Origin: a virus
DNA: 15,527 nt
Virus genome (UHGV): UHGV-1646100
Direction: 5' to 3' (one strand)
Within the stretch, counting starts at the first letter, position 1; every line of letters begins with the position of its first letter. A program made the translations under genes and the position numbers. Positions 1-14,589 of this stretch are shown piece after piece. Below the pieces are notes generated by a model, which made no database searches, was not told the origin of the DNA, and saw only the letters and a list, made by a program, of their open reading frames with translations.

Positions 1-81
1 ATCTTCGGGAGCAAATCCACAGCAAATTGCCACTCGCTTGTTAATTTCAAAATCACTTAACTGTGAATAATCCATTGTCAT
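1..81 (-). CDS. nin-region hypothetical protein, N-terminal part only (gene continues beyond window start)
   Basis: Minus-strand ATG at 79-81 overlaps the ninE stop (ATGA). Translation begins [27 protein letters not shown] and runs off the window edge. Confidence 0.45.
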
Positions 82-254
82 TTCCTCGCACGATATCTTA
101 GCCACCGGATATCCCACAGGTGGGCTGTGTAATTGAAGGTTTTTACGTCAGATTCTTTTGGGATTAGCTTGCGTTTATTTCTGGAGCGTTTCGTTGGAAG
201 GTATTTGCAGTTTTCGCAGATTATGTCGGTGATGCTTCGTCGCTGTCGTCTCAT
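78..254 (-). CDS. ninE: NinE-like protein
   Basis: ORF 78..344 contains [29 protein letters not shown]..., which I recognise as lambda NinE. Start chosen at the internal Met at 252-254, which overlaps the upstream gene stop (ATGA). Confidence 0.8.
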
Positions 255-778
255 GCAGCCCTCCTGACGCCCTGCCCGATCGCCATCAATGCCGCTTTGG
301 ATACGGTAGTAAACATCCGTCGAGGACTGATGAACGGTCGCCAAATCAGCAGCATGGAGCCTTTGCTGTTTCCCTTCTTCTCCAGCCCTGTCGATGGTTC
401 GATAAAATTAATCCGTCCATCAGTGATAATACGAACTTCGTCAACACTCTCCAGAGCCTTGCTGAACCATCCGACAGACATATCCTCTGGCACAAGCATC
501 ACTACCGTCTGTCGCTGTTGTATACACTGCTCAGCGGCTTTTTCCACCCACGGCCTGATATTGCTGTACGGTGGGTTATTCCAGATTGCACCGTGGCTTA
601 CCCACTCAGAATTGAGCGCGTCGTCGTCCTCAGTTAGCCAGTGAGCGCACAGAGCATTTTTGTCGCTCGCTGCCGAATCCAGCCAGAATCCAAACTCAAT
701 ATCCAGTGCATCAAAAAGCCAAAGCGGCGTTTGCCAGCAGTCCTTGTCGTGTGCTGGCGTATTTGATTTGATAGTCAT
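251..778 (-). CDS. phage DNA N6-adenine methyltransferase (Dam-type)
   Basis: ORF 251..838. Carries the NPPY motif typical of N6-adenine methyltransferases (…[14 protein letters not shown]…). Start placed at MTIKSN (ATG 776-778) because it overlaps the ninB stop (ATGA); the ORF could instead start at 838. Confidence 0.75.
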
Positions 779-1215
779 GCAGCCCGATCTCCCCATCGCG
801 CTTTCCATTCGAGAGCCAGTCGCGCTTCGTCTGACCACTTAACGCCACGCTCTGTACCGAATGCCTGTATAAGCTCTAATAGCTCCGCAAATTCGCTTAC
901 ACGCATCCTGCTGGTTGACTGGCCTATTACCACAAAGCCATTCCCGGCAAGGTTAGGAACAACATCCTGCTGCTTTAATGCTGCGGTAAACACACACTTC
1001 CAGCTTTCTGCATCCAGCCAGCGACCATGCCATTCAACCTGACGAGAGACGTCACCTAAGCAGGCCCATAGCTTCCTGTTTTGGTCTAAGCTGCGGTTGC
1101 GTTCCTGAATGGTTACTACGATTGGTTTGGTTGGGTCTGGAAGGATTTGCTGTACTGCGTGAATAGCGTTTTGCTGATGTGCCGGAGATCGAATTTCAAA
1201 GGTTAGTTTTTTCAT
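775..1215 (-). CDS. ninB: NinB (Orf) recombination protein
   Basis: MKKLTFEIRSPAHQQNAIHAVQQILPDPTKPIVVTIQERNRSLDQNRKLW... matches lambda NinB as I remember it. Start at the internal Met (146 aa), preceded by GGAG. Confidence 0.9.
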   Translation of the reverse strand: MKKLTFEIRSPAHQQNAIHAVQQILPDPTKPIVVTIQERNRSLDQNRKLWACLGDVSRQVEWHGRWLDAESWKCVFTAALKQQDVVPNLAGNGFVVIGQSTSRMRVSEFAELLELIQAFGTERGVKWSDEARLALEWKARWGDRAA

Positions 1216-1230
1216 GACTTCCCTCTCCCC

Positions 1231-1263
1231 CAAATAAAAAGGCCTGCGATTACCTGCAGGCCT
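1231..1263 (-). terminator. rho-independent terminator between ren and ninB (tR2-like)
   Basis: 8-bp inverted repeat aggcctgc/gcaggcct (1240-1247 and 1256-1263) with an 8-nt loop, followed on the minus strand by a U-rich run (plus strand caaataaaaa, 1231-1240). Confidence 0.7.
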
Positions 1264-1288
1264 GTTATTAGCTCAGTGATGTAGATGG

Positions 1289-1579
1289 TCATCTTTTAAC
1301 TCCATATACCGCCAATATCCGTTTCATCGTGGCACTCTGGCGACACTCCTTAAAAATCAGGTTCGTGCTCATCTTTCCTTCCCGTTCTTCCTTGGTAGCA
1401 AACCGGTAATACACCGTTCGCCAGACCTTACCTTCGATAACCAGAAGACCTGCCCGTGCCATTTTAGCCGCGGCCTGATTTATGCTGGTTACTGTTGCGC
1501 CTGTTAGCGCGGCAACGTCCGGCGCACAGAAGCTATTATGCGTCCCCAGGTAATGAATAATTGCCTCTTTGCCCGTCAT
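1289..1579 (-). CDS. ren: Ren protein
   Basis: 96-aa ORF MTGKEAIIHYLGTHNSFCAPDVAALTGATVTSINQAAAKMARAGLLVIEGK... recognised as lambda Ren. Start overlaps the P stop. Confidence 0.9.
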   Translation of the reverse strand: MTGKEAIIHYLGTHNSFCAPDVAALTGATVTSINQAAAKMARAGLLVIEGKVWRTVYYRFATKEEREGKMSTNLIFKECRQSATMKRILAVYGVKR

Positions 1580-2277
1580 ACACTTGCTCCTTTCAGTCCT
1601 AACTTAGCTTTAATTTCTGCGATCTTCGCCAGCGCCTGAACACGATTTAGAGGTCTGCCGCCCATGACAGGAAGTTGTTTTACTGGTTCAGGTATCGTCT
1701 CACCACGGTTAATTCGCGCTGTCATACAGGTCAGTTCATCGGCAGCCTTGCGTCGTAATTCCGCGTCAGTCAGCGCATTGGCCCGCATGTTCTGGTACAG
1801 GTTGGTAACCAGCCAGTAGTGCGCGTTCGATTTCCACGGATAAGACTCTGCATCCGGATACAGGCCTCGCTTCCGGCAATACTCGTAAACCATATCAACC
1901 AGCTCGCTGACGTTTGGCAGTCCGGCGATAACGGATGCTTCTTCCCGGCACCATGCAACAAACTGCCCGGGTGATGGCAGAAATGGTCGATTCTGCCGAC
2001 GGGCTACGCGCATTCCTGCGTTAACCTGTTCCATTGTGGTGATCCCGTTTTCCCGGAAAGCCAGAACCCACTGGCGGCGGATTTCGTTCAGTTCGTTCTG
2101 GTCACGGTTAGCCAGACTCGCCGGGAAAGTTGCCAGTAACTGGCTGAACACACCGTTGATGATCTGCGCTACCTGCTGTACCTGCGGCTTTTCGTCGTAC
2201 TGTTCCGGCATGTTGTTGGCGATCCGACGCATCTGCTCACGGTCAAAATTAACCATCTGTGCGGCGATGTTTTTCAT
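1576..2277 (-). CDS. P: replication protein P (helicase loader)
   Basis: 233-aa ORF MKNIAAQMVNFDREQMRRIANNMPEQYDEKPQVQQ... recognised as lambda P. Start overlaps the O stop. Confidence 0.92.
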   Translation of the reverse strand: MKNIAAQMVNFDREQMRRIANNMPEQYDEKPQVQQVAQIINGVFSQLLATFPASLANRDQNELNEIRRQWVLAFRENGITTMEQVNAGMRVARRQNRPFLPSPGQFVAWCREEASVIAGLPNVSELVDMVYEYCRKRGLYPDAESYPWKSNAHYWLVTNLYQNMRANALTDAELRRKAADELTCMTARINRGETIPEPVKQLPVMGGRPLNRVQALAKIAEIKAKLGLKGASV

Positions 2278-3173
2278 AAATCCACCCCGTAAATCCAGTC
2301 AGTGTTTGTCAGGTCGAGTTTTGGTTTGCAGGCTGTCACACCTGCCTGTTGCTTGTTACGGTTGATTTCGAGCTGGGTCCACTTGTCGCGGAGTTTGGCC
2401 GGGCTCAGCACGTTACCGGACCAGAAGTTGTCCTGGCATGCCCAGCGGAACAGTACACACATGTCGCGATGGTTACGTCCGTCACGTTCACGCATCAGGC
2501 GGATATCGTTAGCCCACCCTGCAAAATTCGGTTTTCTGGCTGATGGCGCGATGGTCTTCACCATGTCAAACATCCATTCTGCGGCGGTCAGGTCTTCTGC
2601 TGTCCCCCACTTGCTGCCGCTCTGAATTGCAGCATCCGGTTTCACCACAGAAAGGTCGTTTTCTGGCTGGTCAGAGGATTCGCCAGAATTCTCTGACGAA
2701 TAATCTTTTCTTTTTTCTTTTGTAATAGTGTCTTTTGTGTCCCCCTGTTTTGAGGGATAGCAATCCCCCAATTTGAGGGATGTTTTATCCCTCGTTTTAG
2801 GGGATTTTCCCTCGTTTTGAGGGATACACCATTCTGAGATGTTTTTATTTGGTCCAAACATGCCGCCTTGCTGCTTGATAATATTCATTCTGACGAGTTC
2901 TAACTTGGCTTCATTGCACCGTTTGACGGGTAACTTTGTAATCTCGCTAAGTTGAGAATCGGTGATTCTGTCCATTGGTTTATTCCATCCATAGGTTTTA
3001 CGCAGAATGGCAAGCAGCACTTTAAACTGTCGCTTGGTCAGATCTGCGCCTGAATAAGCCTCAAGCAGCATATTTGATAGTCTGGCGTAACCATCATCGA
3101 GATCTGCCACATTACGCTCCTGTTTGGCAAAGTTACCTCTGCAGAAGTTGAGTATTTTTGCTGTATTTGTCAT
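2274..3173 (-). CDS. O: replication initiator protein O
   Basis: 299-aa ORF MTNTAKILNFCRGNFAKQERNVADLDDGYARLSNM... recognised as lambda O. The ori iterons lie inside the gene, as in lambda. Confidence 0.92.
   Translation of the reverse strand: MTNTAKILNFCRGNFAKQERNVADLDDGYARLSNMLLEAYSGADLTKRQFKVLLAILRKTYGWNKPMDRITDSQLSEITKLPVKRCNEAKLELVRMNIIKQQGGMFGPNKNISEWCIPQNEGKSPKTRDKTSLKLGDCYPSKQGDTKDTITKEKRKDYSSENSGESSDQPENDLSVVKPDAAIQSGSKWGTAEDLTAAEWMFDMVKTIAPSARKPNFAGWANDIRLMRERDGRNHRDMCVLFRWACQDNFWSGNVLSPAKLRDKWTQLEINRNKQQAGVTACKPKLDLTNTDWIYGVDL
2690..2828 (-). other. ori-lambda-type replication origin: four iterons plus adjacent AT-rich region
   Basis: Four ~19-bp iterons, each with internal dyad symmetry, at about 2740-2759, 2764-2782, 2787-2806 and 2808-2826 (tccccctgttttgagggata, atcccccaatttgagggatg, atccctcgttttaggggatt, tccctcgttttgagggata). 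The AT-rich stretch 2690-2737 lies on the O-downstream side. Confidence 0.85.
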
Positions 3174-3205
3174 AATGACTCCTGTGGATTGATCCAGTAA
3201 TGACC

Positions 3206-3502
3206 TCAGAATTCCATCTGGATTTGTTCAGAACGCTCGGTTGCCGCCGGGCGTTTTTTATTGGTGAGTCCATCAAGCGCATACTTAAAAGCCCTGCTAA
3301 TCGGACTGATGTCTGATGCCATTCCGAAAGCACACAAGACCGAAGCAATAAATCTCCAGTCCGTTCTGCTTATCTTCGATTCATGACAGCCAATCATCTT
3401 TGCCAGACCGCGCTGGGTAATAGCTGACAGATTGATAAGTAAATCTGTTTCTGCGCGATCAACGTCACGCTGTGATAGTTTGCTGTAACTTGTTCTTTCC
3501 AT
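3206..3502 (-). CDS. cII: CII-like transcriptional activator (chimeric: non-lambda N-terminus, lambda-type C-terminus)
   Basis: 98-aa ORF whose C-terminus …LTNKKRPAATERSEQIQMEF matches the lambda CII tail as I remember it. It sits between cro and O. The N-terminal ~75 aa differ from lambda. Confidence 0.75.
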   Translation of the reverse strand: MERTSYSKLSQRDVDRAETDLLINLSAITQRGLAKMIGCHESKISRTDWRFIASVLCAFGMASDISPISRAFKYALDGLTNKKRPAATERSEQIQMEF

Positions 3503-3587
3503 TTCTTAAGATTTCCAATAGTGAATAGTTAGTTGAAAGGTATGCGTGGAAACGCATATGGCCTTAGTTGGTCAGATATCTTGGAAC

Positions 3588-3634
3588 TCGCTTTTCAGCG
3601 ACGTAGGACGAATGTCCGTTGTTACAAAGAGCGG
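3588..3634 (-). promoter_or_regulatory. nutR-like site (boxA plus boxB hairpin) downstream of cro
   Basis: On the minus strand: GCTCTTTGTAACAACG (boxA-like), then …CTACGTCGCTGAAAAGCGAG with stem UCGCU/AGCGA and loop GAAAA. A near-identical arrangement occurs upstream of the N-like gene (6269-6314). Confidence 0.6.
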
Positions 3635-3643
3635 ATCCGCTTA

Positions 3644-3859
3644 TTAAGCGGCTTTGTGTTCCGGCGGGAACACGTCATCAAGACTGACTTTTGCGCCTAA
3701 CTTGTTTAGGCACGCAACAAGAGCACGGCATGTTTTAAGGTCTGGGAAGCGACGACCAGATTCCCAATGTCCGATAGCTCCCTGTGTGCATCCAACTGCC
3801 TTAGCAAGTGTTGTTTGAGAGATATTCAGTGACTCTCGATATTTTCGTAGGTTGCTCAT
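3644..3859 (-). CDS. cro: Cro-like HTH repressor (non-lambda specificity)
   Basis: Internal Met of ORF 3644..4030 gives a 71-aa protein MSNLRKYRESLNISQTTLAKAVGCTQGAIGHWESGRRF… with an HTH motif. It is divergent from cI, has an upstream GGAGGG, and sits directly upstream of cII/O/P. Confidence 0.8.
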   Translation of the reverse strand: MSNLRKYRESLNISQTTLAKAVGCTQGAIGHWESGRRFPDLKTCRALVACLNKLGAKVSLDDVFPPEHKAA

Positions 3860-3970
3860 ATGCCCTCCATAGTAAACACGAATAAAAAAATACAATATGT
3901 ACTTTGCGAATACAAGTAAAAATACACATTGTGCATGGATGGTTCCAGTACAGAGCGTAATAATAAGGAC
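3860..3970. promoter_or_regulatory. divergent cI/cro control region (OR operators, PR, PRM)
   Basis: Intergenic region between divergent cI and cro. Candidate PR on the minus strand: -35 TTGTAT (plus 3910-3915), 17-nt spacer, -10 TATTTT (plus 3887-3892). Operator-like motif tacaatatgtacttt (3891-3905) recurs in reverse complement at the PL region. Confidence 0.6.
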
Positions 3971-4630
3971 ATGAAAATGAAATGGTATGAACTGGCTAGA
4001 TCCAGAATGAAAGAGCTCGGCATAACTCAAGAGAAGTTAGCCGAAGAGCTAGGTATGACGCAGGGTGGGATTGGACACTGGTTGCGCGGATCTCGTCATC
4101 CATCTCTTAGTGATATTGGTGTGGTGTTTAAATACCTTGGTATTGATAACATATCATTCAACCACGACGGGACATTTTCACCTGTTGGCGAATACTCATC
4201 GGCCCCAGTTAAAAAACAATATGAGTACCCTGTTTTTTCTCATGTTCAGGCTGGGATGTTCTCTCCAGAACTCAGAACCTTTACCAAAGGCGATGCGGAG
4301 AGATTGGTAAGCACAACCAAAAAAGCCAGTGACTCTGCATTCTGGCTTGAGGTTGAAGGTAACTCAATGACCGCACCAACAGGTTCCAAACCCAGCTTTC
4401 CTGACGGGATGTTAATTCTGGTTGACCCTGAGCAAGCTGTTGAGCCCGGCGATTTCTGCATAGCCAGACTTGGTGGTGATGAATTTACCTTCAAGAAACT
4501 GATCAGGGATAGCGGTCAGGTGTTTCTACAGCCACTAAACCCACAATACCCAATGATCCCATGCAATGAGAGTTGTTCCGTTGTGGGGAAAGTTATCGCC
4601 AGCCAATGGCCTGAAGAGACGTTTGGGTGA
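3971..4630 (+). CDS. cI: CI repressor (LexA-like S24 peptidase C-terminal domain, distinct N-terminal HTH)
   Basis: ORF 3929..4630. The C-terminal half (…[26 protein letters not shown]…[90 protein letters not shown]) matches lambda CI as I remember it, including the catalytic Ser and Lys. The N-terminal HTH (…[10 protein letters not shown]…) is different. Start ATG 3971 is preceded by AAGGA. Confidence 0.85.
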
Positions 4631-4669
4631 TGAAACCACTTTTATCTACAATTTACAGGGCGGTAAACA

Positions 4670-5227
4670 TTGGCAAAAATAGATGATTATCAGCCAAGCC
4701 AAGTAGAAGTTGATAAAGTACTTTATTGTAAAAAAATAGTTAACTTTTCTGGCGTTAAATGGAAACAGAAACCAAGTCGCTCTGATATGTGGCTACAAGC
4801 CCATATCATCCCCTTGGATGAGGATTGTATACCTATACAAGGGCTAAAGTTTGAACTGAAATGGAAACCAGATCAGGATTCAGAACCTGATGACCCGATT
4901 TCTTACCCTAAAATAAATATTATTGCTTTCTATCATAACAAGAGGGTTTTCGCGGTAGATACCTATCACTTTGACAAACACACGAATAGTTACAAGGTCG
5001 ATCATCCGAAGTACCAAGATATCATTTACGGTGCTCACTACCATGTATACTATGAAGAAGCTGGATACTATAGTGATAGAATAGCGTTTCCAATCGAAGA
5101 TGACATAAACCCAGATGACCTGGTAGGGTATTGGAATTACTTCTGTAAACATCTGAACATAACTTACTCTGGGAGAATACCTTTACCGCTTGAAGATGAG
5201 TCGGGGCAAATGGGGTTTGGAATATGA
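4670..5227 (+). CDS. hypothetical protein, first gene of a two-gene cassette in the rexA position (function unknown)
   Basis: 185-aa ORF directly downstream of cI. No similarity to any protein I recognise. AT-rich. The start is a TTG (4670) with AGGG about 9 nt upstream; the first in-frame ATG is at 4787. The stop overlaps the next gene's ATG (ATGA). Confidence 0.6.
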   Translation: MAKIDDYQPSQVEVDKVLYCKKIVNFSGVKWKQKPSRSDMWLQAHIIPLDEDCIPIQGLKFELKWKPDQDSEPDDPISYPKINIIAFYHNKRVFAVDTYHFDKHTNSYKVDHPKYQDIIYGAHYHVYYEEAGYYSDRIAFPIEDDINPDDLVGYWNYFCKHLNITYSGRIPLPLEDESGQMGFGI

Positions 5228-5976
5228 TGTGCTCAACAGTGATCTCACAACTAGGTTTCGAATGCCATCCAATAGGCAAGACCTTGAGAATTATCAGTCC
5301 ATTCACTTACTGTGATGATGGAGAGCATGTCGGTGCCTTTATCCGTGAAGTCAATGGTAGGTATTTAGTTAGTGACAGATGCGATGCCTTAATGAATATG
5401 GAGGCAAGAGGGATCTCGCTTACCAAAAAACGACTTGATGAGATACGACAATTACTGCTTAAAGAAGGCGCAGAACTCAATGCTCGAGGAGAAATCATTG
5501 CTTGGGCAACAGAAAAGGATGTCGGTGCGATTACATCGAACATAATTAGAGCTGGTATACTCGCATCAACTTTGTCGTTAGACTGGTATCAGCCAGTTCA
5601 AGCTGAAAAGTTTGAAAGTATGGTTATTGATTATCTATATCACACAGAGCTTAGAGACGCACTTTCTCTTCGTGAAAACGTATATGGCTTGAGTGGACAT
5701 CAAATTACCGTCCCTGTAACAATAAAAACCGACATACCTAAATACGTTTTTACATCAAGCGTGAAACACGGAGGAAGCTGGAATAGTGCTTACTCATTGC
5801 TTGGGAAACTAATTGATCTTAAAGCTTCAAGTGAGGAGTATAACAACAGATTTGTTGTTATAGACAGCGAAGCAATTGGTGATCAAATGCAACAACTCTC
5901 CTTACTCTTCCATGAATCAAGCCAAGTTCTACCATTCTCCAAAAGAGAGACTTGGGTTAAGAGACTTGCAGCATAA
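5224..5976 (+). CDS. hypothetical protein, second gene of the two-gene cassette in the rexB position (function unknown)
   Basis: 250-aa ORF, translationally coupled to the upstream gene (ATGA overlap at 5224-5227) and followed by a strong terminator. No recognisable motifs such as Walker A. Confidence 0.65.
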   Translation: MMCSTVISQLGFECHPIGKTLRIISPFTYCDDGEHVGAFIREVNGRYLVSDRCDALMNMEARGISLTKKRLDEIRQLLLKEGAELNARGEIIAWATEKDVGAITSNIIRAGILASTLSLDWYQPVQAEKFESMVIDYLYHTELRDALSLRENVYGLSGHQITVPVTIKTDIPKYVFTSSVKHGGSWNSAYSLLGKLIDLKASSEEYNNRFVVIDSEAIGDQMQQLSLLFHESSQVLPFSKRETWVKRLAA

Positions 5977-5980
5977 TACA

Positions 5981-6007
5981 ACCCGGCCTCAGCGCCGGGT
6001 TTTCTTT
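5981..6007 (+). terminator. rho-independent terminator ending the cI operon
   Basis: Stem acccggc/gccgggt (5981-5987 and 5994-6000) with loop ctcagc, followed by tttcttt. Confidence 0.8.
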
Positions 6008-6187
6008 GCCTCACGTTCGCCCACCTAAAAACACATAACCAATTATATTTATTGAAAAATAAATAGATGCAACCCACTAAACCACGCAATTCTGATCTCT
6101 CCTTACATCGCCGAGGCAATACATCCACGCTAAAAAACAACACTATTAAATACAAAGCGTTATAAAAAACCACGCCAACTTACAACA

Positions 6188-6225
6188 AATTGTATTGATC
6201 TTGTAAAGTACATATCGTACTATTT
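6188..6225 (+). promoter_or_regulatory. PL-like promoter with OL operator
   Basis: -35 TTGATC (6195-6200), 17-nt spacer, -10 TACTAT (6218-6223). The operator-like motif aaagtacatatcgtac (6205-6220) shares a 15-nt core with the PR region in reverse complement. Confidence 0.55.
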
Positions 6226-6268
6226 AACCGTCAGCAGGACGCTGGAAGCCAAATGGAACAGACTGGCA

Positions 6269-6314
6269 GGCTCTTTAAACAACGTCGACTCTCGACTACG
6301 TGGCTGAAAAGCCA
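6269..6314 (+). promoter_or_regulatory. nutL-like site (boxA plus boxB hairpin)
   Basis: GGCTCTTTAAACAACG (boxA-like), then …CTACGTGGCTGAAAAGCCAG with stem UGGCU/AGCCA and loop GAAAA. Matches the nutR candidate nearly base for base. Lies upstream of the N-like gene. Confidence 0.6.
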
Positions 6315-6412
6315 GATCACCCAACCACATAAGCTGTGGGATGCAATGCCGAAGCAACCGTCTCAGGAGGAGCTTCGAGATTGCATCGCCAAAGTTTATT
6401 CGGGAGGAATCC

Positions 6413-6685
6413 ATGTCCAGAAAAACAGAATTTAAAGGCACCGCAGCTTCTCGCCGTAGAGCTCGTCGCGCAAATCTGCAAAGTCAGGAGGCGATCAGCT
6501 CCGACAAGCTACACAGGCCAACCCCTTCACGAGTGGTCTTGCAATGCAAGCTCAAACCAGCAATGAGAGCAGAAGTGATAACTCTGACAACGTTGACCAG
6601 AAAATATGAAGGTTCAACTTGTCTTCCGAACGTAGCTCTTTACGCGGCAGGCTACCGGAAATCAAAACAACTGACGGCGAGATGA
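6413..6685 (+). CDS. N: N-like transcription antitermination protein (arginine-rich motif)
   Basis: Internal Met of ORF 6341..6685, preceded by GGGAGGA. 90-aa protein MSRKTEFKGTAASRRRARRANLQ… with an N-terminal Arg-rich motif. The C-terminus …NVALYAAGYRKSKQLTAR resembles P22 gene 24-type N proteins as I remember them. Position after nutL fits. Confidence 0.75.
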   Translation: MSRKTEFKGTAASRRRARRANLQSQEAISSDKLHRPTPSRVVLQCKLKPAMRAEVITLTTLTRKYEGSTCLPNVALYAAGYRKSKQLTAR

Positions 6686-6701
6686 TAAATTCATTTGCTA
6701 A

Positions 6702-7283
6702 TTACTTGTTTTTGCCATGCTTATCCTGAGCGATAAGTTCATCCATAAGGCTGTCTGCCTTCCCGGCAAACCTAATGTAGCACTCATGTCTATAGCTTTC
6801 AGGGATAACGAAACGGTCGGTATCAGGATATCCAACAGCAGGAGGCCTTCGAACGAGGAGTCCTTTTTTGAGCAATGAAATTGATTCATGAGCGCCCTTT
6901 TCCGTTTGTAGCTGGTTATTAGCGGCTACAGCGAATGCCAAATACGCTCTTTCTCCAAGAGTTAACGAATCAAACAAATCTTGCACATATTTTTCTTCTT
7001 TAGATTTGCGCTTCTGAGCAGCGAATACCTCAATTCTTTCAGTCACAGCGTGATAAGCGGAATTAACAACGCCGTTAAGCACATAGCTAACGCAAAACAA
7101 CAGGATGTAATACATCCAGTAATGAGGAAGGATTTCTGGACTATGCAGGTTTATCCATTCTTTTACGCTTACCGGCATAACAATAATCAATATGATCAGG
7201 ATGATTAGCATATGAATCAACTGTTTAAGTGTCATTCCTTGCAGGAAAAAATGCATTAGTTCCTGCCACCATGAGTTGTTCAT
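6702..7283 (-). CDS. sieB: superinfection exclusion protein B (SieB)
   Basis: 193-aa ORF MNNSWWQELMHFFLQGMTLKQLIHMLIILIILIIVMPVSVKEW… with an N-terminal membrane segment; recognised as SieB of P22/lambda type. It is antisense to the PL operon between N and ral. Confidence 0.8.
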   Translation of the reverse strand: MNNSWWQELMHFFLQGMTLKQLIHMLIILIILIIVMPVSVKEWINLHSPEILPHYWMYYILLFCVSYVLNGVVNSAYHAVTERIEVFAAQKRKSKEEKYVQDLFDSLTLGERAYLAFAVAANNQLQTEKGAHESISLLKKGLLVRRPPAVGYPDTDRFVIPESYRHECYIRFAGKADSLMDELIAQDKHGKNK

Positions 7284-7426
7284 CGGCGTTTCTCTTTTGC
7301 TCTCTGTAGGGGTGAATAGAGTTTATCCGATTTCTCGTTGTAGGGGTACACGAGAACCACCGAGCCTGATGTGGTTAAAAGACAGGCACAATCTTTACTA
7401 CCGCAATCCACTATTTAAGGTGATAT

Positions 7427-7513
7427 ATGGAAGAAGAATTTGAAGAGTTCGAAGAGCATCCTCAAGATGTGATGGAACAATACCAGGACTATCCGTATGA
7501 CTACGACTATTGA
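7427..7513 (+). CDS. small acidic ORF (lambda orf28-like position)
   Basis: 28 codons, MEEEFEEFEEHPQDVMEQYQDYPYDYDY. Overlaps the ral start. Not in the ORF track because it is under 60 aa. Low confidence that it is expressed. Confidence 0.3.
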   Translation: MEEEFEEFEEHPQDVMEQYQDYPYDYDY

Positions 7514-7697
7514 TACAAATCAATGGTGTGGACAATTCAAACGATGCAATGGATGCAAGCTGCAATCGGAATGCATGGTTAAGCCTGAAGAAATGTTTCC
7601 TGTAATGGAAGATGGGAAATATGTCGATAAATGGGCAATACGAACGACGGCAATGATTGCCAGAGAACTTGGTAAACAGAACAACAAAGCTGCCTGA
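7497..7697 (+). CDS. ral: Ral restriction-alleviation protein
   Basis: 66-aa ORF MTTTIDTNQWCGQFKRCNGCKLQSECMVKPEEMFPVMEDGKYVDKWAIRTTAMIARELGKQNNKAA recognised as lambda Ral. Confidence 0.9.
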   Translation: MTTTIDTNQWCGQFKRCNGCKLQSECMVKPEEMFPVMEDGKYVDKWAIRTTAMIARELGKQNNKAA

Positions 7698-7833
7698 TAG
7701 TGGCCTTTATTTTTGGCATAAATAACAGAATAAACACTGCACTGTGTATTCATTCCAACGAGTGAATACACGGAGCAATGTCGCTCGTAACTAAACAGGA
7801 GCCGACTTGTTCTGATTATTGGAAATCTTCTTT

Positions 7834-7860
7834 GCCCTCCAGTGTGAGGGCGATTTTTTA
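7834..7860 (+). terminator. rho-independent terminator between ral and ea10
   Basis: Stem gccctc/gagggc (7834-7839 and 7846-7851) with loop cagtgt, followed by gatttttta. Confidence 0.7.
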
Positions 7861-7879
7861 TCTATGAGGATATGAATAG

Positions 7880-8248
7880 ATGTCAAACATCAAAAAATAC
7901 ATCATTGATTACGACTGGAAAGCATCAATAGAAATTGAAATTGACCATGACGTAATGACAGAGGAAAAACTTCACCAGATTAATAATTTCTGGTCAGACT
8001 CTGAATACCGACTCAATAAACACGGCTCTGTATTAAATGCTGTATTAATCATGCTGGCGCAACATGCTCTGCTTATAGCAATTTCAAGCGACTTAAATGC
8101 ATATGGTGTTGTGTGTGAGTTCGACTGGAATGATGGAAATGGTCAGGAAGGATGGCCTCCAATGGATGGTAGTGAAGGAATAAGAATTACCGATATCGAT
8201 ACATCAGGAATATTTGATTCAGATGATATGACTATCAAGGCCGCCTGA
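7880..8248 (+). CDS. ea10: Ea10-like protein
   Basis: 122-aa ORF MSNIKKYIIDYDWKASIEIEIDHDVMTEEKLHQINNFWSDSEYRLNKHGSVLNAVLIMLAQH… recognised as lambda Ea10. Confidence 0.85.
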   Translation: MSNIKKYIIDYDWKASIEIEIDHDVMTEEKLHQINNFWSDSEYRLNKHGSVLNAVLIMLAQHALLIAISSDLNAYGVVCEFDWNDGNGQEGWPPMDGSEGIRITDIDTSGIFDSDDMTIKAA

Positions 8249-8320
8249 GCGCGGCGTTACCGCATACCAATTACGCTTCACTCGAGGCGTTTTTCGTTAT
8301 GTATAAATAAGGAGCACACC

Positions 8321-8485
8321 ATGCAATATGCCATTGCAGGGTGGCCTGTTGCTGGCTGCCCTTCCGAATCTTTACTTGAACGAATCACCCGTAAATTACG
8401 TGACGGATGGAAACGCCTTATCGACATACTTAATCAGCCAGGAGTCCCAAAAAATGGATCAAACAATTATGGCTATCCAGACTAA
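8321..8485 (+). CDS. cIII: CIII (FtsH inhibitor that stabilises CII)
   Basis: 54-codon ORF not in the track (under 60 aa): [54 protein letters not shown]. Recognised as lambda CIII. TAAGGAG lies 7 nt upstream. Confidence 0.9.
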   Translation: MQYAIAGWPVAGCPSESLLERITRKLRDGWKRLIDILNQPGVPKNGSNNYGYPD

Positions 8486-8597
8486 ATTCACTATCGCCAC
8501 TTTTATTGGCGATGAAAAGATGTTTCGTGAGGCCGTCGACGCTTATAAAAAATGGATATTAATACTGAAACTGAGATCAAGCAAAAGCATTCACTAA
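8454..8597 (+). CDS. kil: Kil (host-killing, cell-division inhibitor)
   Basis: Internal Met of track ORF 8328..8597 gives a 47-aa protein [47 protein letters not shown], recognised as lambda Kil. CCAGGAG lies upstream. Overlaps the 3' end of cIII in another frame, as in lambda. Confidence 0.85.
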
Positions 8598-8672
8598 CCC
8601 CCTTTCCTGTTTTCCTAATCAGCCTGGCATTTCGCGGGCGATATTTTCACAGCCATTTTCAGGAGTTCAGCC

Positions 8673-8969
8673 ATGAACGCTTATTACATTCAGGATCGTC
8701 TTGAGGCTCAGAGCTGGGCGCGTCACTACCAGCAGATCGCCCGTGAAGAGAAAGAGGCAGAACTGGCAGACGACATGGAAAAAGGCCTGCCCCAGCACCT
8801 GTTTGAATCGCTATGCATCGATCATTTACAACGCCACGGGGCCAGCAAAAAAGCCATTACCCGTGCGTTTGATGACGATGTTGAGTTTCAGGAGCGCATG
8901 GCAGAACACATCCGGTACATAGTTGAAACCATTGCTCACCATCAGGCTGATATTGATTCAGAGGTATAA
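8673..8969 (+). CDS. gam: Gam (RecBCD inhibitor), short GamS-type form
   Basis: 98-aa [59 protein letters not shown]… recognised as lambda GamS. AGGAG lies upstream. Confidence 0.92.
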
Positions 8970-8974
8970 AACGG

Positions 8975-9760
8975 ATGAGTACAGCACTCGCAACGCTGGC
9001 AGGGAAGCTGGCTGAACGTGTCGGCATGGATTCTGTCGACCCACAGGAACTGATCACCACTCTTCGCCAGACGGCATTTAAAGGTGATGCCAGCGATGCG
9101 CAGTTCATCGCATTGTTGATCGTCGCCAACCAGTACGGCCTTAATCCGTGGACGAAAGAAATTTACGCCTTCCCTGATAAGCAGAACGGCATTGTTCCGG
9201 TGGTGGGCGTTGATGGCTGGTCCCGCATCATCAATGAAAACCAGCAGTTTGATGGTATGGACTTTGAGCAGGACAATGAATCATGTACATGCCGGATTTA
9301 CCGCAAAGACCGCAATCATCCGATCTGCGTTACCGAGTGGATGGATGAATGCCGCCGCGAACCATTCAAAACCCGCGAAGGCAGAGAAATCACGGGGCCG
9401 TGGCAGTCGCATCCCAAACGGATGTTACGGCATAAAGCCATGATTCAGTGTGCCCGTCTCGCCTTCGGATTTGCTGGTATCTATGACAAGGATGAAGCCG
9501 AGCGCATTGTCGAAAATACCGCATACACTGCAGAACGTCAGCCGGAACGCGACATCACTCCGGTTAACGATGAAACCATGCAGGAGATTAACACTCTGCT
9601 GATCGCCCTGGATAAAACATGGGATGACGACTTATTGCCGCTCTGTTCCCAGATATTTCGCCGCGACATTCGCGCATCGTCAGAACTGACACAGGCCGAA
9701 GCAGTGAAAGCTCTTGGATTCCTGAAACAGAAAGCCACTGAGCAGAAGGTGGCAGCATGA
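8975..9760 (+). CDS. bet: Bet (Red-beta single-strand annealing recombinase)
   Basis: 261-aa [62 protein letters not shown]… recognised as lambda Bet. Confidence 0.95.
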
Positions 9761-10437
9761 CACCGGACATTATCCTGCAGCGTACCGGGATCGACGTGAG
9801 AGCTGTCGAACAGGGGGATGATGCATGGCACAAATTACGGCTCGGCGTCATCACCGCTTCAGAAGTTCACAACGTGATAGCAAAACCCCGCTCCGGAAAG
9901 AAATGGCCTGACATGAAAATGTCCTACTTCCACACCCTGCTTGCTGAGGTTTGCACCGGTGTGGCTCCGGAAGTTAACGCTAAGGCGCTGGCTTGGGGAA
10001 AACAGTACGAGAACGACGCCAGAGCCCTGTTTGAGTTTACTTCCGGCGTGAATGTTACTGAATCCCCGATCATCTATCGCGACGAAAGTATGCGCACCGC
10101 CTGCTCTCCCGATGGTTTATGCAGTGACGGCAACGGCCTTGAGCTGAAATGCCCGTTTACCTCCCGGGATTTCATGAAGTTCCGGCTCGGTGGTTTCGAG
10201 GCCATAAAATCGGCTTACATGGCCCAGGTGCAGTACAGCATGTGGGTGACGCGAAAAGATGCCTGGTACTTTGCCAACTATGACCCGCGTATGAAGCGTG
10301 AAGGACTGCATTATGTCGTGGTTGAGCGGGATGAAAAGTACATGGCGAGTTTTGACGAGATGGTGCCGGAGTTCATCGAAAAAATGGACGAGGCACTGGC
10401 TGAAATTAGTTTTGTATTTGGGGAGCAATGGCGATGA
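9757..10437 (+). CDS. exo: Exo (lambda 5'-3' exonuclease, Red-alpha)
   Basis: 226-aa [68 protein letters not shown]… recognised as lambda Exo. Start overlaps the bet stop. Confidence 0.95.
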
Positions 10438-10616
10438 CGCATCCTCACGATAATATCCGGGTAGGCGCGATCACTTTCGTCTACTCCGTTACAAAGCGAG
10501 GCTGGGTATTTCCCGGCCTTTCTGTTATCAGAAATCCACTGAAAGCACAGCGGCTGGCTGAGAAGATAAATAATAAACGGGAGGCGGTATGCACAAAGCA
10601 TCTCCTGTTGAGTTAA
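10434..10616 (+). CDS. lambda orf60a-like hypothetical protein
   Basis: The ATG at 10434 overlaps the exo stop (ATGA) and gives exactly 60 aa: [60 protein letters not shown]. Confidence 0.75.
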
Positions 10617-10780
10617 GAACGAGTATTGAGATGGCACATAGCCTTGCTCAAATTGGAGTCAGGTTTGTGCCAATACCAGTAGAAACAGACGAAGAATTTC
10701 ATACGTTAGCCGCATCCCTTTCACAAAAGCTGGAAATGATGGTGGCGAAAGCAGAAGCAGATGAGAGAGACCAGGTATGA
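10589..10780 (+). CDS. lambda orf63-like hypothetical protein
   Basis: 63-aa [66 protein letters not shown]. Position and length match lambda orf63. Confidence 0.75.
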   Translation: MHKASPVELRTSIEMAHSLAQIGVRFVPIPVETDEEFHTLAASLSQKLEMMVAKAEADERDQV

Positions 10781-10860
10781 CAACCACTGAATGCATTTTT
10801 CTGGCAGCGGGCTTCATATTCTGTGTGCTTATGCTTGCCGACATGGGGCTTGTTCAGTGA
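10777..10860 (+). CDS. putative small hydrophobic peptide (27 aa)
   Basis: ATG 10777 overlaps the orf63 stop (ATGA). Encodes MTTTECIFLAAGFIFCVLMLADMGLVQ, a single predicted transmembrane-like segment. Its stop overlaps a GTG start of the next ORF (GTGA). Not in the ORF track (under 60 aa). Confidence 0.35.
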   Translation: MTTTECIFLAAGFIFCVLMLADMGLVQ

Positions 10861-11072
10861 CACCTCAGCAAGAAAACGCCCTTCGCAGCATTGCCCGTCA
10901 GGCTAATTCTGAAATCAAAAAAGCCAGACAGCAGTTTCCGGATAAAAACGTCGATGACATTTGCCGTAGCGTACTAAAGAAGCACCGCGAAACGGTAACG
11001 CTGATGGGATTCACACCGACTCATTTAAGCCTGGCGATCGGCATGTTAAACGGCGTCTTTAAGGAACGGTGA
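10857..11072 (+). CDS. hypothetical protein (lambda orf61-region)
   Basis: C-terminal part of track ORF 10791..11072. Start is uncertain: GTG at 10857 is coupled to the upstream small ORF, or ATG at 10791. Protein …VTPQQENALRSIARQANSEIKKARQQFPDKNVDDICRSVLKKHRETVTLMGF…. Confidence 0.5.
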   Translation: MTPQQENALRSIARQANSEIKKARQQFPDKNVDDICRSVLKKHRETVTLMGFTPTHLSLAIGMLNGVFKER

Positions 11073-11170
11073 ACATGAAAAGCAAAATCATCAGGGAGCT
11101 ACAGGCTCCTTTTTTATTATTCGCATTCACCCTCAAGCGTATTAACCAACAATTCAGGGATTAATGAAAG

Positions 11171-11392
11171 ATGGCGGACATCATTGATTCAGCATCAGAA
11201 ATTGAAGAATTACAGCGCAATACAGCAATAAAAATGCGTCGTCTGAACTACCAGACTATATCCGCCACTCATTGTTGTGAGTGTGGCGATCCCATAGATG
11301 AACGAAGACGCCTGGTCGTTCAGGGTTGTCGGACTTGTGCAAGTTGCCAGGAGGATCTGGAGCTTATCAGTAAACAGAGAGGTTCGAAGTGA
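11171..11392 (+). CDS. TraR/DksA-family C4 zinc-finger protein (lambda Orf73-like)
   Basis: 73-aa ORF with CxxC…CxxC (…ATHCCECGDPIDERRRLVVQGCRTCASCQ…), typical of TraR-like RNA-polymerase-binding proteins. Confidence 0.8.
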   Translation: MADIIDSASEIEELQRNTAIKMRRLNYQTISATHCCECGDPIDERRRLVVQGCRTCASCQEDLELISKQRGSK

Positions 11393-12153
11393 GCGAAATT
11401 AACTATCAGGCACTGCGTGAAGCGGCAGAAAAAGCAACGTGTGGTGAGTGGTCGCTCGAATATGGAGAGAGCCGATTTGATGGTGATTATGCGCTAATTC
11501 ATCGTGAAGTTGCTGGATATATTCCCATTTGCAGAATTGAAGGAGCGCATCCAGAAAGCGGTTTCGATGAAGATTTCCAAATGGAACAGCAGGCCAATGC
11601 TGAATTCATCGCCGCAGCCAATCCGGCTACTGTGCTGGCACTGCTGGATGAACGGGAAAGAAACCAGCAATACATAAAACGCCGCGACCAGGAGAACGAG
11701 GATATTGCTCTTACTGTTGGGAAGCTGAGAGTTGAGCTTGAGGAGACAAAATCAAAACTCAACGAGCAGCGTGAGTATTACGAAGGTGTTATCTCGGATG
11801 GGGGTAAGCGTATTGCTGAACTGGAGAAAAGCGAAGAGCAACTCATTAACGAGCGTGACCATGCTGAATCTGCTTTAGCAGATATGTACTTTGCAGCAAC
11901 CGGGGATGAGCCGGAGTGGAGCAACTGGTTCGGCTTTTCAGATGCTGTCGATGCCGTGGTTGACAGAATTGCTGATTTAGAAGCTAAACAGCCATCACCA
12001 GTAGTACCGGAAGGACTGGTTAAAGCAGTGCGCTTCTATGAACAGGTTAAGCGTGAAAATCCACCAGTCGAAACAGAGGCATGGAAAGACGCTATTGACT
12101 GGGTGCTCAAAGAGTCTTGTCAGGCTGTAAACATTGATACCAATGGAGATTGA
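11389..12153 (+). CDS. Ea22-like family protein (coiled-coil centre)
   Basis: 254-aa ORF MSEINYQALREAAEKATCGEWSLEYGESRFDGDYALIHREVAGYIPICRIEGAHPESGF… with a central charged, coiled-coil-like segment. Position between orf73 and xis. Family assignment is from memory only. Confidence 0.55.
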   Translation: MSEINYQALREAAEKATCGEWSLEYGESRFDGDYALIHREVAGYIPICRIEGAHPESGFDEDFQMEQQANAEFIAAANPATVLALLDERERNQQYIKRRDQENEDIALTVGKLRVELEETKSKLNEQREYYEGVISDGGKRIAELEKSEEQLINERDHAESALADMYFAATGDEPEWSNWFGFSDAVDAVVDRIADLEAKQPSPVVPEGLVKAVRFYEQVKRENPPVETEAWKDAIDWVLKESCQAVNIDTNGD

Positions 12154-12154
12154 T

Positions 12155-12409
12155 ATGAGCACTTTTACCGACAAAGAACTGATTAAAGAAATCAAAGAGC
12201 GTATCAGCAGTTTGGATGTGCGAGACAATGTTGAGCGCCGGGCTTATGAAATTGCTCTGGCATCGCTGGAAGAGAATCCGGTGGCATGGCTGCATTCAGA
12301 CAATGGCTTAGGTATTCCGGCAATAACGAGGAGTAAAAACATTGCTGACAGTTGGTTATCAAAGGGTTGGTATGTTCAGCCGCTATATATGCCAAGCCAG
12401 TGCCAGTAG
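12155..12409 (+). CDS. hypothetical protein, Ea22-like N-terminal module (possibly the 5' part of a frame-disrupted gene)
   Basis: ATG 12155 with GGAG 6 nt upstream. Protein MSTFTDKELIKEIKERISSLDVRDNVERRAYEIALASLEENPVAWL… shares the …IALASLE… module with ORF 13168..13908. It overlaps the next ORF, which is in the -1 frame. Confidence 0.5.
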   Translation: MSTFTDKELIKEIKERISSLDVRDNVERRAYEIALASLEENPVAWLHSDNGLGIPAITRSKNIADSWLSKGWYVQPLYMPSQCQ

Positions 12410-12960
12410 TACCTGAAGAAAAACCAATGCCTAACCCTCTTAGCATGTACGCGGTCGATGCTGTTGCCGCTATTGCAGAGGTGAGAGGCTGGAACGCCTG
12501 CCGCGCGGCTATGCTTCATGCCGGAAACTTTCGGGAAAACGCGAATTCGTCAACCAATAATTTTCGGGAAATTTCGGAAACGTCAACCAACTCTCCGGTA
12601 ATTCCTGGTGAGGTGTTGTCCGCAATCCTGAAATTTGCCAGAGTTCGTGCTGATTTCGATGATTTTGACGGCGACAGGCGAGGTATCGGTGATTGTCTGG
12701 ATGAGGCTGAGCAAGAGCTTATCGTTACCATTAACAAATATGCCAGTCAGTTGGCAGCAGAACCGATAGCGACTAATGACGTTCGAGAGCAGCAGACAGC
12801 CGTTCCGCCAGTTCCTGTAATACAGGCTGATGTCGCGCAAGCAATTGAAAATCTCAGGCAGAAGTTAGTGGAATGCAATCGCTATAACTACTGCGCAGAT
12901 GCAGTTAAGGGCGTAGAGGATGCCTGCCACGCTGCCATGCTTCAGGGAAAAAGAGAGTGA
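12352..12960 (+). CDS. hypothetical protein (Ea22-like C-terminal modules; start uncertain)
   Basis: 202-aa ORF containing an NSPVIPGEV module also present in ORF 13168..13908, and an internal tandem peptide repeat NFRENANSSTN / NFREISETSTN. It may be the downstream part of a frameshifted gene. Confidence 0.5.
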   Translation: MVIKGLVCSAAIYAKPVPVVPEEKPMPNPLSMYAVDAVAAIAEVRGWNACRAAMLHAGNFRENANSSTNNFREISETSTNSPVIPGEVLSAILKFARVRADFDDFDGDRRGIGDCLDEAEQELIVTINKYASQLAAEPIATNDVREQQTAVPPVPVIQADVAQAIENLRQKLVECNRYNYCADAVKGVEDACHAAMLQGKRE

Positions 12961-12961
12961 T

Positions 12962-13171
12962 ATGGCTATTGCCGCAAGTTACACCATGCATCTCTATTGT
13001 GATTGTCGCCAGTGTACGGAAGGTGTATATCCAGTGCCAGACTTCGGTGAGTATATCGGTACGTCATGGTCTGGTTGTGCAAAAGAGGCCCGTAAAGACG
13101 GGTGGCGAATAAGCAAAGACAAAACACGTACTTTTGCGCCCGGGCATAAAGTTTTGAGGATTAACACATGA
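12962..13171 (+). CDS. small cysteine-rich hypothetical protein
   Basis: Internal Met of track ORF 12920..13171, immediately after the upstream stop. 69 aa, MAIAASYTMHLYCDCRQCTEGVYPVPDFGEYIGTSWSGCAKEARKDGWRISKDK… Its stop overlaps the next ATG (ATGA). Confidence 0.5.
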   Translation: MAIAASYTMHLYCDCRQCTEGVYPVPDFGEYIGTSWSGCAKEARKDGWRISKDKTRTFAPGHKVLRINT

Positions 13172-13908
13172 CCACTATTACCAAAGAACGTATTGAATTG
13201 TTCATTAAAAATCCGCTTGAAAACGGGCTTACTCGTGGCGAACAAATGGAACTAGCACGAATTGCACTGGCATCACTGGAACGCGAACAGATTCGCCACG
13301 AGCATGCCAAATGGTCTGACTCCACATTTGGCTGCGTTGGCCCCATTGGTCCACTGAAACACCTCTCAAAAGAGGCACTGGAAGCCGCAGCCGAACCAGA
13401 CGATCTTAGCGAGTGGGCTGATATGCAGTTTCTGTTGTGGGATGCACAGCGCCGTGCTGGCATCAGCGATGCTGAAATTACCGTTGCTATGGAAGATAAA
13501 TTGAAGATCAACATGGAGCGCCAGTGGCCTGAGCCAAAAGATGGTGAGCCTCGCTTGCACATTAAAGAACCCGGCAACTCTCCGGTAATTCCGGATGGTT
13601 TATCCACGGTATGCGCTGAGGCTTATCAGGTTGTAGGAGTTATGGCAGATGCGCTTGGTGTATTCGGTGATGCAGCAGTACAGAAAGTTCTGGATAACCT
13701 GTCACAGCAAAAACTTGTTCACAGAGATGTGCTGCCGTTCTCGCTTCCGGTAACTCCGGATGGTTGGGTTATGGTTCCTAAACAGGTAACGCCGGAAATC
13801 AGCAACGCGATAAACGTTGTGGGTCAACGCTGTACATGCGGAAATTGCTCTCAGCGGTTGTGGGATTTATTACTCGACGCCACACAGCAAGGAGTTAACC
13901 GTGGCTAA
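13168..13908 (+). CDS. Ea22-like family protein
   Basis: 246-aa ORF MTTITKERIELFIKNPLENGLTRGEQMELARIALASLEREQIRHEHAKW… Shares the IALASLE and NSPVIPDG modules with upstream paralogues. Confidence 0.55.
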   Translation: MTTITKERIELFIKNPLENGLTRGEQMELARIALASLEREQIRHEHAKWSDSTFGCVGPIGPLKHLSKEALEAAAEPDDLSEWADMQFLLWDAQRRAGISDAEITVAMEDKLKINMERQWPEPKDGEPRLHIKEPGNSPVIPDGLSTVCAEAYQVVGVMADALGVFGDAAVQKVLDNLSQQKLVHRDVLPFSLPVTPDGWVMVPKQVTPEISNAINVVGQRCTCGNCSQRLWDLLLDATQQGVNRG

Positions 13909-14185
13909 CCTGCAACTTGCCGTTAAAGGTGAATACTTCGATGCCATGATTCGCGGAGAGAAAACGGAAGAGTATCGCCTGTGTAATGACTACTGGAAAA
14001 AGCGCCTCGTTAACCGTAAGCATGACCGCCTGATTATCACAAAGGGATATCCGAAGCGCGACGATTCCAGCCGCAGAGTTGATGTTCCGTATGACGGATA
14101 TGAAGTGAAGACAATCACACATCCGCACTTCGGTGATAAACCGGTAAAGGTATACGCGATAAAGGTAAATATCGGCACTGAATAA
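13901..14185 (+). CDS. ASCH-domain-like protein
   Basis: GTG 13901 with AAGGAG 7 nt upstream; alternatively TTG at 13817 as in the ORF track. Protein (M)ANLQLAVKGEYFDAMIRGEKTEEYRLCNDYWKKRL… resembles the ASCH/PUA-like N-terminal signature. Confidence 0.5.
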   Translation: MANLQLAVKGEYFDAMIRGEKTEEYRLCNDYWKKRLVNRKHDRLIITKGYPKRDDSSRRVDVPYDGYEVKTITHPHFGDKPVKVYAIKVNIGTE

Positions 14186-14210
14186 CAATCCGCACAACAC
14201 AAGGTCAAGA

Positions 14211-14450
14211 ATGTTCAGAGTGATTTACCCTAACACCTGGTACGTCGACCACCACGGCACTCCCTGCAAAATCCTGCGTTCCACTCACAACAAAGTTCAC
14301 TACATCCGAAAAGGCAGAACATGTATCGCCAGCATGTTCCGCTTTAATCATGACTTTGAACCTGTGAATAAAGCTGACGCAGATCGGATAGCTGAAGAGA
14401 TCGAAACAGCAGAACACATTAAGAAGTTACGTGCCATACGCAGGAAATAG
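14211..14450 (+). CDS. hypothetical protein
   Basis: 79-aa ORF MFRVIYPNTWYVDHHGTPCKILRSTHNKVHYIRKGRTCIASMFRFNHDFEPVNKADADRIAEEIETAEHIKKLRAIRRK. Co-directional with xis/int. No recognisable motif. Confidence 0.45.
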   Translation: MFRVIYPNTWYVDHHGTPCKILRSTHNKVHYIRKGRTCIASMFRFNHDFEPVNKADADRIAEEIETAEHIKKLRAIRRK

Positions 14451-14589
14451 AAAAATTGATAAATTCAATACTGCATTTCTCAGCATTAAATTTATCTCTA
14501 TGACCAGTCAAGAGATGTACCTGCCATGAGCTTAATATCATGTCAGATATATCGGTCACAAACTCCCTCAGCAGCTAAGAGGAGGACAA

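Follow-up and report, generated by a model that had tools for sequence, protein, structure and literature searches.

The closest described relative of the immunity region studied here is that of VT2-Sakai (Sp5; AP000422), the Stx2 phage of Escherichia coli O157 Sakai. Its GenBank record annotates three operators each at OR and OL, the promoters PR, PRM and PL, and the nutL and nutR sites, and describes the CI repressor as 'similar to bacteriophage lambda CI'. The same immunity region occurs in Stx2 II, the Morioka V526 Stx1-converting phage and the PA-series O157 phages. VT2-Sakai CI has been assigned to clade I, with 61% overall identity to lambda CI (PMC8951638), and Fattah et al. 2000, as cited in PMC10742460, found the homology between VT2-Sa CI and lambda CI to be high in the C-terminal and low in the N-terminal part.

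Three further systems serve as points of reference. Phage lambda itself (NC_001416) has the same gene order as the present locus and, likewise, two sets of three 17-bp operators some 2.3 kb from each other. The lambda imm21 hybrid and phage 21 (OM418627, AJ237660) carry a comparable border between lambda and non-lambda DNA, and the record AJ237660 annotates 'border lambda immunity' inside cII. The 434/P22-type regulatory pairs resemble the pair described below in that the N-terminal domain of the repressor and Cro are paralogous HTH_3 proteins with near-identical recognition helices and shared operators; they differ from it in operator sequence and in the C-terminal domain of the repressor, and the present pair is known from sequence alone.

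The window, i.e. the whole stretch of 15,527 nucleotides analyzed here (virus genome UHGV-1646100), contains the early region of a lambda-like phage in an orientation opposite to that of the standard lambda map. Positions 39-15464 are 100% identical to the Escherichia phages ev017 and PhiR57_1. With high confidence the window can be assigned to a temperate phage of the lambda-like kind that is identical to these two; it represents the early regulatory region, with an immunity of the described VT2-Sakai (Sp5) type. The features referred to in the text are as follows.

1576-2277, minus strand: P (ren lies on the same strand)
2274-3173, minus strand: O
3184-3260, plus strand: predicted oop antisense RNA, overlapping the 3' end of cII, coordinates mapped from lambda
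3206-3502, minus strand: cII (Phage_CII), 98 aa, with a lambda-type tail (3206-3268) and a body of the phage-21/H-19B/mEp234 type (3269-3502)
3230-3257, plus strand: terminator-like hairpin of oop with U-tract (RNA fold -28.4 kcal/mol, z = -3.2)
3480-3493, plus strand: putative CII-binding repeat TTGC-N6-TTGT in the -35 region of the establishment promoter, directed towards cI, mapped from the VT2-Sakai 'CII protein binding site'
3503-3643, minus strand: cII-cro spacer with nutR and tR1, a separate mosaic piece (94-95% shared with HK97, HK106 and H-19B)
3644-3859, minus strand: cro, 71 aa, all-helical HTH_3 type (Pfam HTH_3, 4.3e-12)
3888-3962: right operator region with OR1 (3888-3904), OR2 (3920-3936) and OR3 (3946-3962), identical to the AP000422 operators, and divergent PR and PRM
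3977-4219, plus strand: cI, N-terminal HTH domain (aa 1-81) of VT2-Sakai specificity, 242 of 243 nt identical to VT2-Sakai (HTH_3, 1.9e-10)
4220-4630, plus strand: cI, linker and S24 C-terminal domain (aa 82-217), lambda-type (nt identity 93.4% to lambda, 98.1% to VT2-Sakai)
4670-5976, plus strand: two cargo genes (185 aa and 250 aa) in the lambda rexA-rexB slot downstream of cI
5980-6001, plus strand: terminator hairpin ending the cI operon, inside a 122-nt lambda island (5980-6101, 90%)
6148-6222: left operator region with OL3 (6148-6164), OL2 (6181-6197) and OL1 (6206-6222); OL1 identical to VT2-Sakai, OL2 and OL3 one nucleotide off each
6413-6685, plus strand: N, with a lambda-like cIII-to-exo block on the same strand
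6702-7283, minus strand: sieB

A BLASTN search against the whole lambda genome yielded four islands of homology, 775-3268 (97.3%, pairing with lambda 41084-38591), 4220-4631 (93.4%, pairing with lambda 37637-37226), 5980-6101 (90%) and 7304-11437 (97.5%). Between the first two, at 3269-4219, neither BLASTN nor global alignment found any lambda-alignable DNA. Base-level alignment showed that at both edges of this gap, 3268/3269 in cII and 4219/4220 in cI, only a few nucleotides separate unalignable from near-identical sequence, and the proposal of an earlier note on this DNA that the region is a mosaic relative to lambda with joints inside both genes is thus borne out by sharp switches. The resemblances to lambda on which it was based are also real: CI residues 82-217 differ from lambda CI once in 136 aa (W129L), and CII ends in the same 20 aa as lambda CII. 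The CI N-terminal domain, Cro and the early part of CII do differ from lambda as had been noted, with the qualification that the 'different' part of CII still belongs to the CII family and is the phage 21 allele.

CI has the make-up of a LexA/CI-type self-cleaving repressor, combining an HTH domain with a peptidase S24 domain that contains a Ser/Lys dyad and an Ala-Gly site. The HTH_3 match covers residues 9-56 and the Peptidase_S24 match has an E-value of 1.1e-28 (Pfam). The C-terminal part matches the lambda repressor structures PDB 3bdn (E = 3e-96) and 8gmu (E = 3e-89). Lambda residues A111-G112, S149 and K192 align to A92-G93, S130 and K173 here; the RecA-cleavage apparatus is thus kept, and lambda-like SOS cleavage is plausible. 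The N-terminal 81 aa show weak similarity to lambda CI and lack its N-terminal arm; their nearest relatives outside the VT2-Sakai type are Salmonella phage repressors (about 51% identity) and the C2 repressor of phages L/ST64T (about 56%). The joint falls at Tyr82 in the interdomain linker, 10 residues upstream of the Ala-Gly cleavage site, so that the entire cleavage and oligomerisation apparatus is lambda-type. Since the C-terminal domain is closer to VT2-Sakai (98.1%) than to lambda (93.4%), the chimera is old; all phages of this immunity type share it. DNA encoding the lambda-type C-terminal domain was found in 99 phage records, joined to either a lambda or a VT2-Sakai N-terminal domain; the lambda-immunity group comprises lambda, HK97, HK106, mEp234, HK544 and SfI, and the other group consists of VT2-Sakai-immunity phages. 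The cI start of the VT2-Sakai record corresponds to ATG 3977, giving 217 aa, with ATG 3971 as an alternative. Two upstream starts, TTG 3929 and the PGAP start ATG 3935, were rejected because they lie inside or adjoin OR2.

Cro is identical to VT2-Sakai Cro over all 71 residues and is unrelated in sequence to lambda Cro, with 18 identities over a forced alignment of 77 columns. A Pfam search of Cro gave no match to the lambda-Cro family, and its PDB matches are HTH_3-type proteins, including the N-terminal domain of P22 C2. Cro and the CI N-terminal domain are paralogous (35% identical over 62 aa, E = 1e-12) and, as the earlier note had observed, have similar recognition helices, TQGGIGHW at CI residues 28-35 and TQGAIGHW at Cro residues 25-32.

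Operators were assigned from the VT2-Sakai GenBank annotation, where they are termed 'putative', and from a motif scan. The six putative sites, with the half-site AAGTACA, have the symmetric consensus AAGTACA-N3-TGTACTT and are confined to two clusters; when 15,511 window positions were scanned with leave-one-out matrices, the OR sites ranked 1-8 and the OL sites 2-6. No site with four or fewer mismatches to the 17-mer of the lambda operators, of the TATCACCGCCAGTGGTA type, was found anywhere in the window, and the near-matches to the lambda 9-mer all lie beyond the regulatory region. The suggestion of non-lambda operators was therefore well founded. OR and OL are separated by about 2.26 kb, as in lambda. 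The centre-to-centre distance of OR1 and OR2 is 32 bp here versus 24 bp in lambda, and lambda-style pairwise cooperativity at OR is for this reason not guaranteed. PR and PRM were placed from the VT2-Sakai annotation and by reading of the sequence, a simple sigma-70 scan having recovered neither of the two promoters.

From these features we infer the following set of binding, cleavage and promoter activities. CI would bind the six 17-bp operators at OR and OL through its N-terminal HTH_3 domain, would repress PR and PL and would probably activate PRM from OR2. The lambda-type C-terminal domain would provide dimerisation, pairwise and long-range cooperativity and possibly looping between OL and OR, and RecA-stimulated self-cleavage at Ala92-Gly93 by Ser130/Lys173 would induce the prophage. 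Cro, a paralogous HTH protein with a near-identical recognition helix, would compete for the same operators, and CII, with its 21-type body, would activate the establishment promoter at TTGC-N6-TTGT. This putative repeat has the same geometry as in lambda and in the VT2-Sakai annotation, the lambda-type repeat being TTGC-N6-TTGC. A literature search found no experiment on CI, Cro or the operators of this exact phage.

The situation in cII is of a different kind. The Phage_CII match (PF05269, 7e-34) extends over residues 1-92 against a model of 91 positions, and the domain is present in full length. Over its first 78 aa, CII agrees with the lambda protein at about 20 positions. The allele of the cII body was found in 266 phage records, with 93.8% identity in phage 21 and 97.4% in mEp234; its carriers include phage 21, H-19B, phi24B, Stx phage 86 and the lambda-immune mEp234. 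The cII tail together with the spacer to O matches lambda at 92 of 95 nt (97%) and VT2-Sakai at 74.6%, and the VT2-Sakai CII tail differs at the protein level too. The lambda homology stops at 3268, a few bases beyond the oop terminator. In the literature the overlap of oop and cII is given as 52 nt (PMC5869508), and AJ237660 annotates oopRNA at the same place; oop is not annotated in the lambda records examined, and a search of Rfam returned the cIII thermoregulator only, without a match for oop or for the nut sites. The lambda-like 'CII tail' is the part of cII that is overlapped by oop, and it is consequently not the product of a protein-domain swap; in our reading, the cII joint delimits the oop-O-P-ren replication module and does not reflect an exchange of a CII protein segment. 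The classical lambda imm21 hybrid and AJ237660 are collinear at 96% with positions 1300-3534, which span ren, P, O, oop, the whole of cII and the region of the establishment promoter; the cII body allele is the same, and the border between lambda and non-lambda DNA again lies in the cII/oop overlap. That border is at about 3241 in imm21, compared to 3268/3269 here, which is some 27 nt further into cII, and the 21-type CII tail reads PVCK in place of the PAA found in this phage and in lambda. The cro gene, operators and cI of imm21 are of a different specificity.

Taken against lambda as a whole, the likeness comprises, besides the gene order and operator layout, the CI linker and C-terminal domain (135 of 136 residues, cleavage site and Ser/Lys dyad among them), the 20 C-terminal residues of CII, and the oop region, O, P and ren at 97%. 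The differences are a CI that lacks the N-terminal arm and has another recognition helix, a Cro of the all-helical HTH_3 type, operators unrelated in sequence, a non-lambda cII body, nutR, N and nutL, and the replacement of rexAB. Judged by N-terminal domain, lambda-fold Cro and operators, the region does not belong to the lambda immunity type. The specificity determinants are instead those of VT2-Sakai: CI is identical at 216 of 217 residues and the CI N-terminal domain at 81 of 81, the core from cro through OR to the CI N-terminal domain is 98.5% identical at the DNA level, next to 98.1% for the lambda-type C-terminal domain, and with OR1-3 and OL1 identical and OL2 and OL3 each one nucleotide different the operators are of the VT2-Sakai type. 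VT2-Sakai differs from the present phage in the cII tail and in all that lies to the right of it, with a tail of its own, an extra orf48 and HK022-like O and P, and it has other cargo between cI and OL; the phage studied here is without stx and has a lambda-like backbone.

Whether the patchwork could be a new, hitherto undescribed immunity type, created by recombination of lambda with an unknown phage, and whether recombination is needed at all, can be considered together. The joints relative to lambda are real, and the exact arrangement, in which a 21-type cII body with a lambda tail stands next to a VT2-Sakai cro-cI segment, differs from the VT2-Sakai record in the cII tail. Nevertheless, the novelty proposed in the earlier note does not hold up, and is refuted by the standard which that note had itself set (identity of the block with a described immunity type), as the interval 3100-4750 is 100% identical in four deposited phages (ev017, ev207, PhiR57_1 and PhiR63_2) and in prophages, at least 99% identical in 281 E. 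coli records, the specificity determinants equal those of VT2-Sakai, including CI, Cro and OR, each segment is a known allele, and the CI chimera had been described by Fattah et al. in 2000 according to the citation in PMC10742460. A new mosaic type is accordingly very improbable. At the opposite extreme, the lambda-like stretches might be ancestral sequence kept by purifying selection under vertical descent, and the codons of the CI C-terminal domain, with 26 synonymous differences and one non-synonymous difference to lambda, do indicate strong purifying selection on that domain. Such selection would, however, have to account for a change from unalignable to 93-97% identity within a few nucleotides at both joints, and for the conservation of synonymous sites and of the non-coding O-cII spacer as well. 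The cII gene, moreover, bears the signature of an exchange, with a tail that is 97% identical to lambda and 75% to VT2-Sakai and an adjacent body in which the relation is reversed. Descent without recombination is hence, if anything, even harder to credit than a new type.

The reading that we prefer is that the cI-cro-cII block is a patchwork in comparison with lambda, but is the long-described VT2-Sakai immunity region joined to a phage-21-type cII, and is as such already known. We attribute the patchwork to modular exchange of the ordinary kind, which took place at two boundaries. One is an old joint in the linker between the CI domains, and every phage of the VT2-Sakai immunity type has it. 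The other is specific to the lineage and lies where the gene for the oop antisense RNA ends on its 3' side; here the oop-O-P-ren replication module of lambda was attached. The region is a textbook case of modular exchange in lambdoid phages that is already represented in GenBank and in the literature, and it carries little weight as a discovery.

From the differences in operators and recognition helices it is plausible that the phage is heteroimmune to lambda. An alternative is that the two are not cleanly heteroimmune, and that mixed dimers or oligomers, or weak mutual recognition of operators, lead to partial cross-immunity or interference. Lambda and VT2-Sakai-type operator specificities both circulate in E. 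coli on a near-identical CI linker and C-terminal domain (135 of 136 aa), and the repressors of co-resident or superinfecting phages could for that reason form mixed dimers, tetramers and octamers. [quoted passage not shown] 2000 (cited in PMC10742460), and in gel shifts lambda CI bound VT2-Sakai operators with an apparent Kd of 3.7-6.4 μM, compared to 0.2-3 μM for its own sites (PMC10742460). Together, the second-hand cross-immunity and the micromolar binding suggest that the specificities may not be fully separate. On the other hand, the operators lack the lambda consensus, with the window devoid of any site within four mismatches, the recognition helices differ, micromolar binding in gel shifts that lacked a non-operator control is about what non-specific binding would give, and mixed dimers are expected to weaken repression rather than to confer immunity. 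On balance we consider incomplete heteroimmunity unlikely. Somewhat more doubtful still is the specific proposal that mixed oligomers of lambda and VT2-Sakai-type CI cause cross-talk in the form of partial cross-immunity, a dominant-negative 'anti-immunity' or coupled induction; if true, it would explain the cross-immunity that PMC10742460 attributes to Fattah et al. 2000.

In addition to the deposited phages, 100% identical copies of 3100-4750 are present in prophages of E. coli Nissle 1917, UTI89, ATCC 25922, ABU 83972, S88, the E. coli type strain and others. The copy in Nissle 1917 lies within a truncated prophage that is reportedly non-inducible. At least 80% of the interval is present in 625 of 5426 E. 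coli genomes, and the specificity core comprising cro, OR and the cI N-terminal domain (3635-4219) in 776 of the 5426 complete E. coli genomes, about one in seven. With its occurrence unchanged in sequenced phages and a core carried by roughly every seventh complete genome, the cI-cro-cII block is an ordinary one. A search of the literature on ev017, ev207 and PhiR57 returned nothing relevant. The comparison places ev017 and the prophages of Nissle 1917, UTI89 and ATCC 25922 in the immunity group of the O157 Sakai Stx2 phage Sp5, and membership in the same group predicts immunity to Sp5-type Stx phages in commensal and ExPEC strains that carry such prophages. What was cloned from Nissle 1917 as 'phage repressor pr' (PMC5987069) is the cII gene of this region, which alters the reading of the protection result in that paper.

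The two cargo genes downstream of cI gave Pfam matches to DUF6978 (weak) and DUF1828. In PADLOC they correspond to a candidate system, with matches to PDC-M24A (4.8e-4) and PDC-M24B (4.7e-10, full length); nothing was found in the literature on PDC-M24. At the position equivalent to the hairpin that follows them (5980-6001), VT2-Sakai annotates the terminator of the pRM transcript.

The 'phage repressor pr' of E. coli Nissle 1917, EcN_1294, was cloned and quantified with primers by Bury et al. 2018 (PMC5987069), and these primers can be placed in the immunity region, which the Nissle 1917 prophage shares. By primer mapping, the cloning primers fall at window positions 3180-3199 and 3530-3548 and the qPCR primers at 3247-3265 and 3288-3305. 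The gene cloned is cII and no repressor, because the primers fall at 3180-3548. The same paper reported that plating of lambda and Stx phages was down about 200-fold with pr, an effect that may come from overexpressed CII, which would force lysogeny or inhibit replication, instead of from repressor immunity. The prophage itself ends just past sieB, where a partial integrase and an ISEc52 transposase with a frameshift interrupt it (16280-17885 of L003, the chromosomal locus next to icd), a cut-off that agrees with the absence of induction reported for it.

Annotations disagree on the start of cI (window 3929-3979):

3935, ATG, PGAP; overlaps operator OR2
3929, TTG, ORF list
3977 (equivalent position), ATG, record of VT2-Sakai, an Stx2 phage of the same CI/Cro immunity type

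With the annotated -10 region of PRM ending near 3964, a transcript could begin at about 3970-3971. Its first codon would then be the AUG at 3971, and the cI mRNA would be leaderless. The cI mRNA of lambda is leaderless.

Downstream of cI, the slot of lambda rexA-rexB is occupied by other genes:

4670-5976, two-gene cargo encoding proteins of 185 aa (DUF6978, weak match) and 250 aa (DUF1828)

In PADLOC this pair matches PDC-M24, a candidate system for defence (4.8e-4 for A and, over the full length, 4.7e-10 for B), and it is bordered on either side by lambda-like sequence, namely the 3' end of cI and, at 5980-6001, the terminator. Other cargo stands at this site in VT2-Sakai and in the phages 2G7b and PhiR11_1.

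The nutR/tR1 spacer (3503-3634) is a mosaic piece of its own, with 94-95% identity to HK97, HK106 and H-19B and also to many Stx1a/Stx2a phages of other immunity types. The thermoregulator of cIII was found at 8308-8366 (Rfam Lambda_thermo, 88.5 bits), the only match in an Rfam scan of the window. Two reading frames overlap past OL1:

6253-6435, RefSeq 'hypothetical protein' of 60 aa, starting just past OL1 and overlapping the beginning of N
6413-6685, N (Pfam N_peptide, 1.5e-32)

The former, which lies where the VT2-Sakai record puts nutL, is probably not a true gene.

Within the E. coli genome collection, the core formed by cro, OR and the cI N-terminal part is present twice in some genomes, which thus carry two prophages sharing one immunity type. 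A variant of this core at just 90-95% identity occurs in 210 records of the collection and may represent a sub-type with altered specificity.
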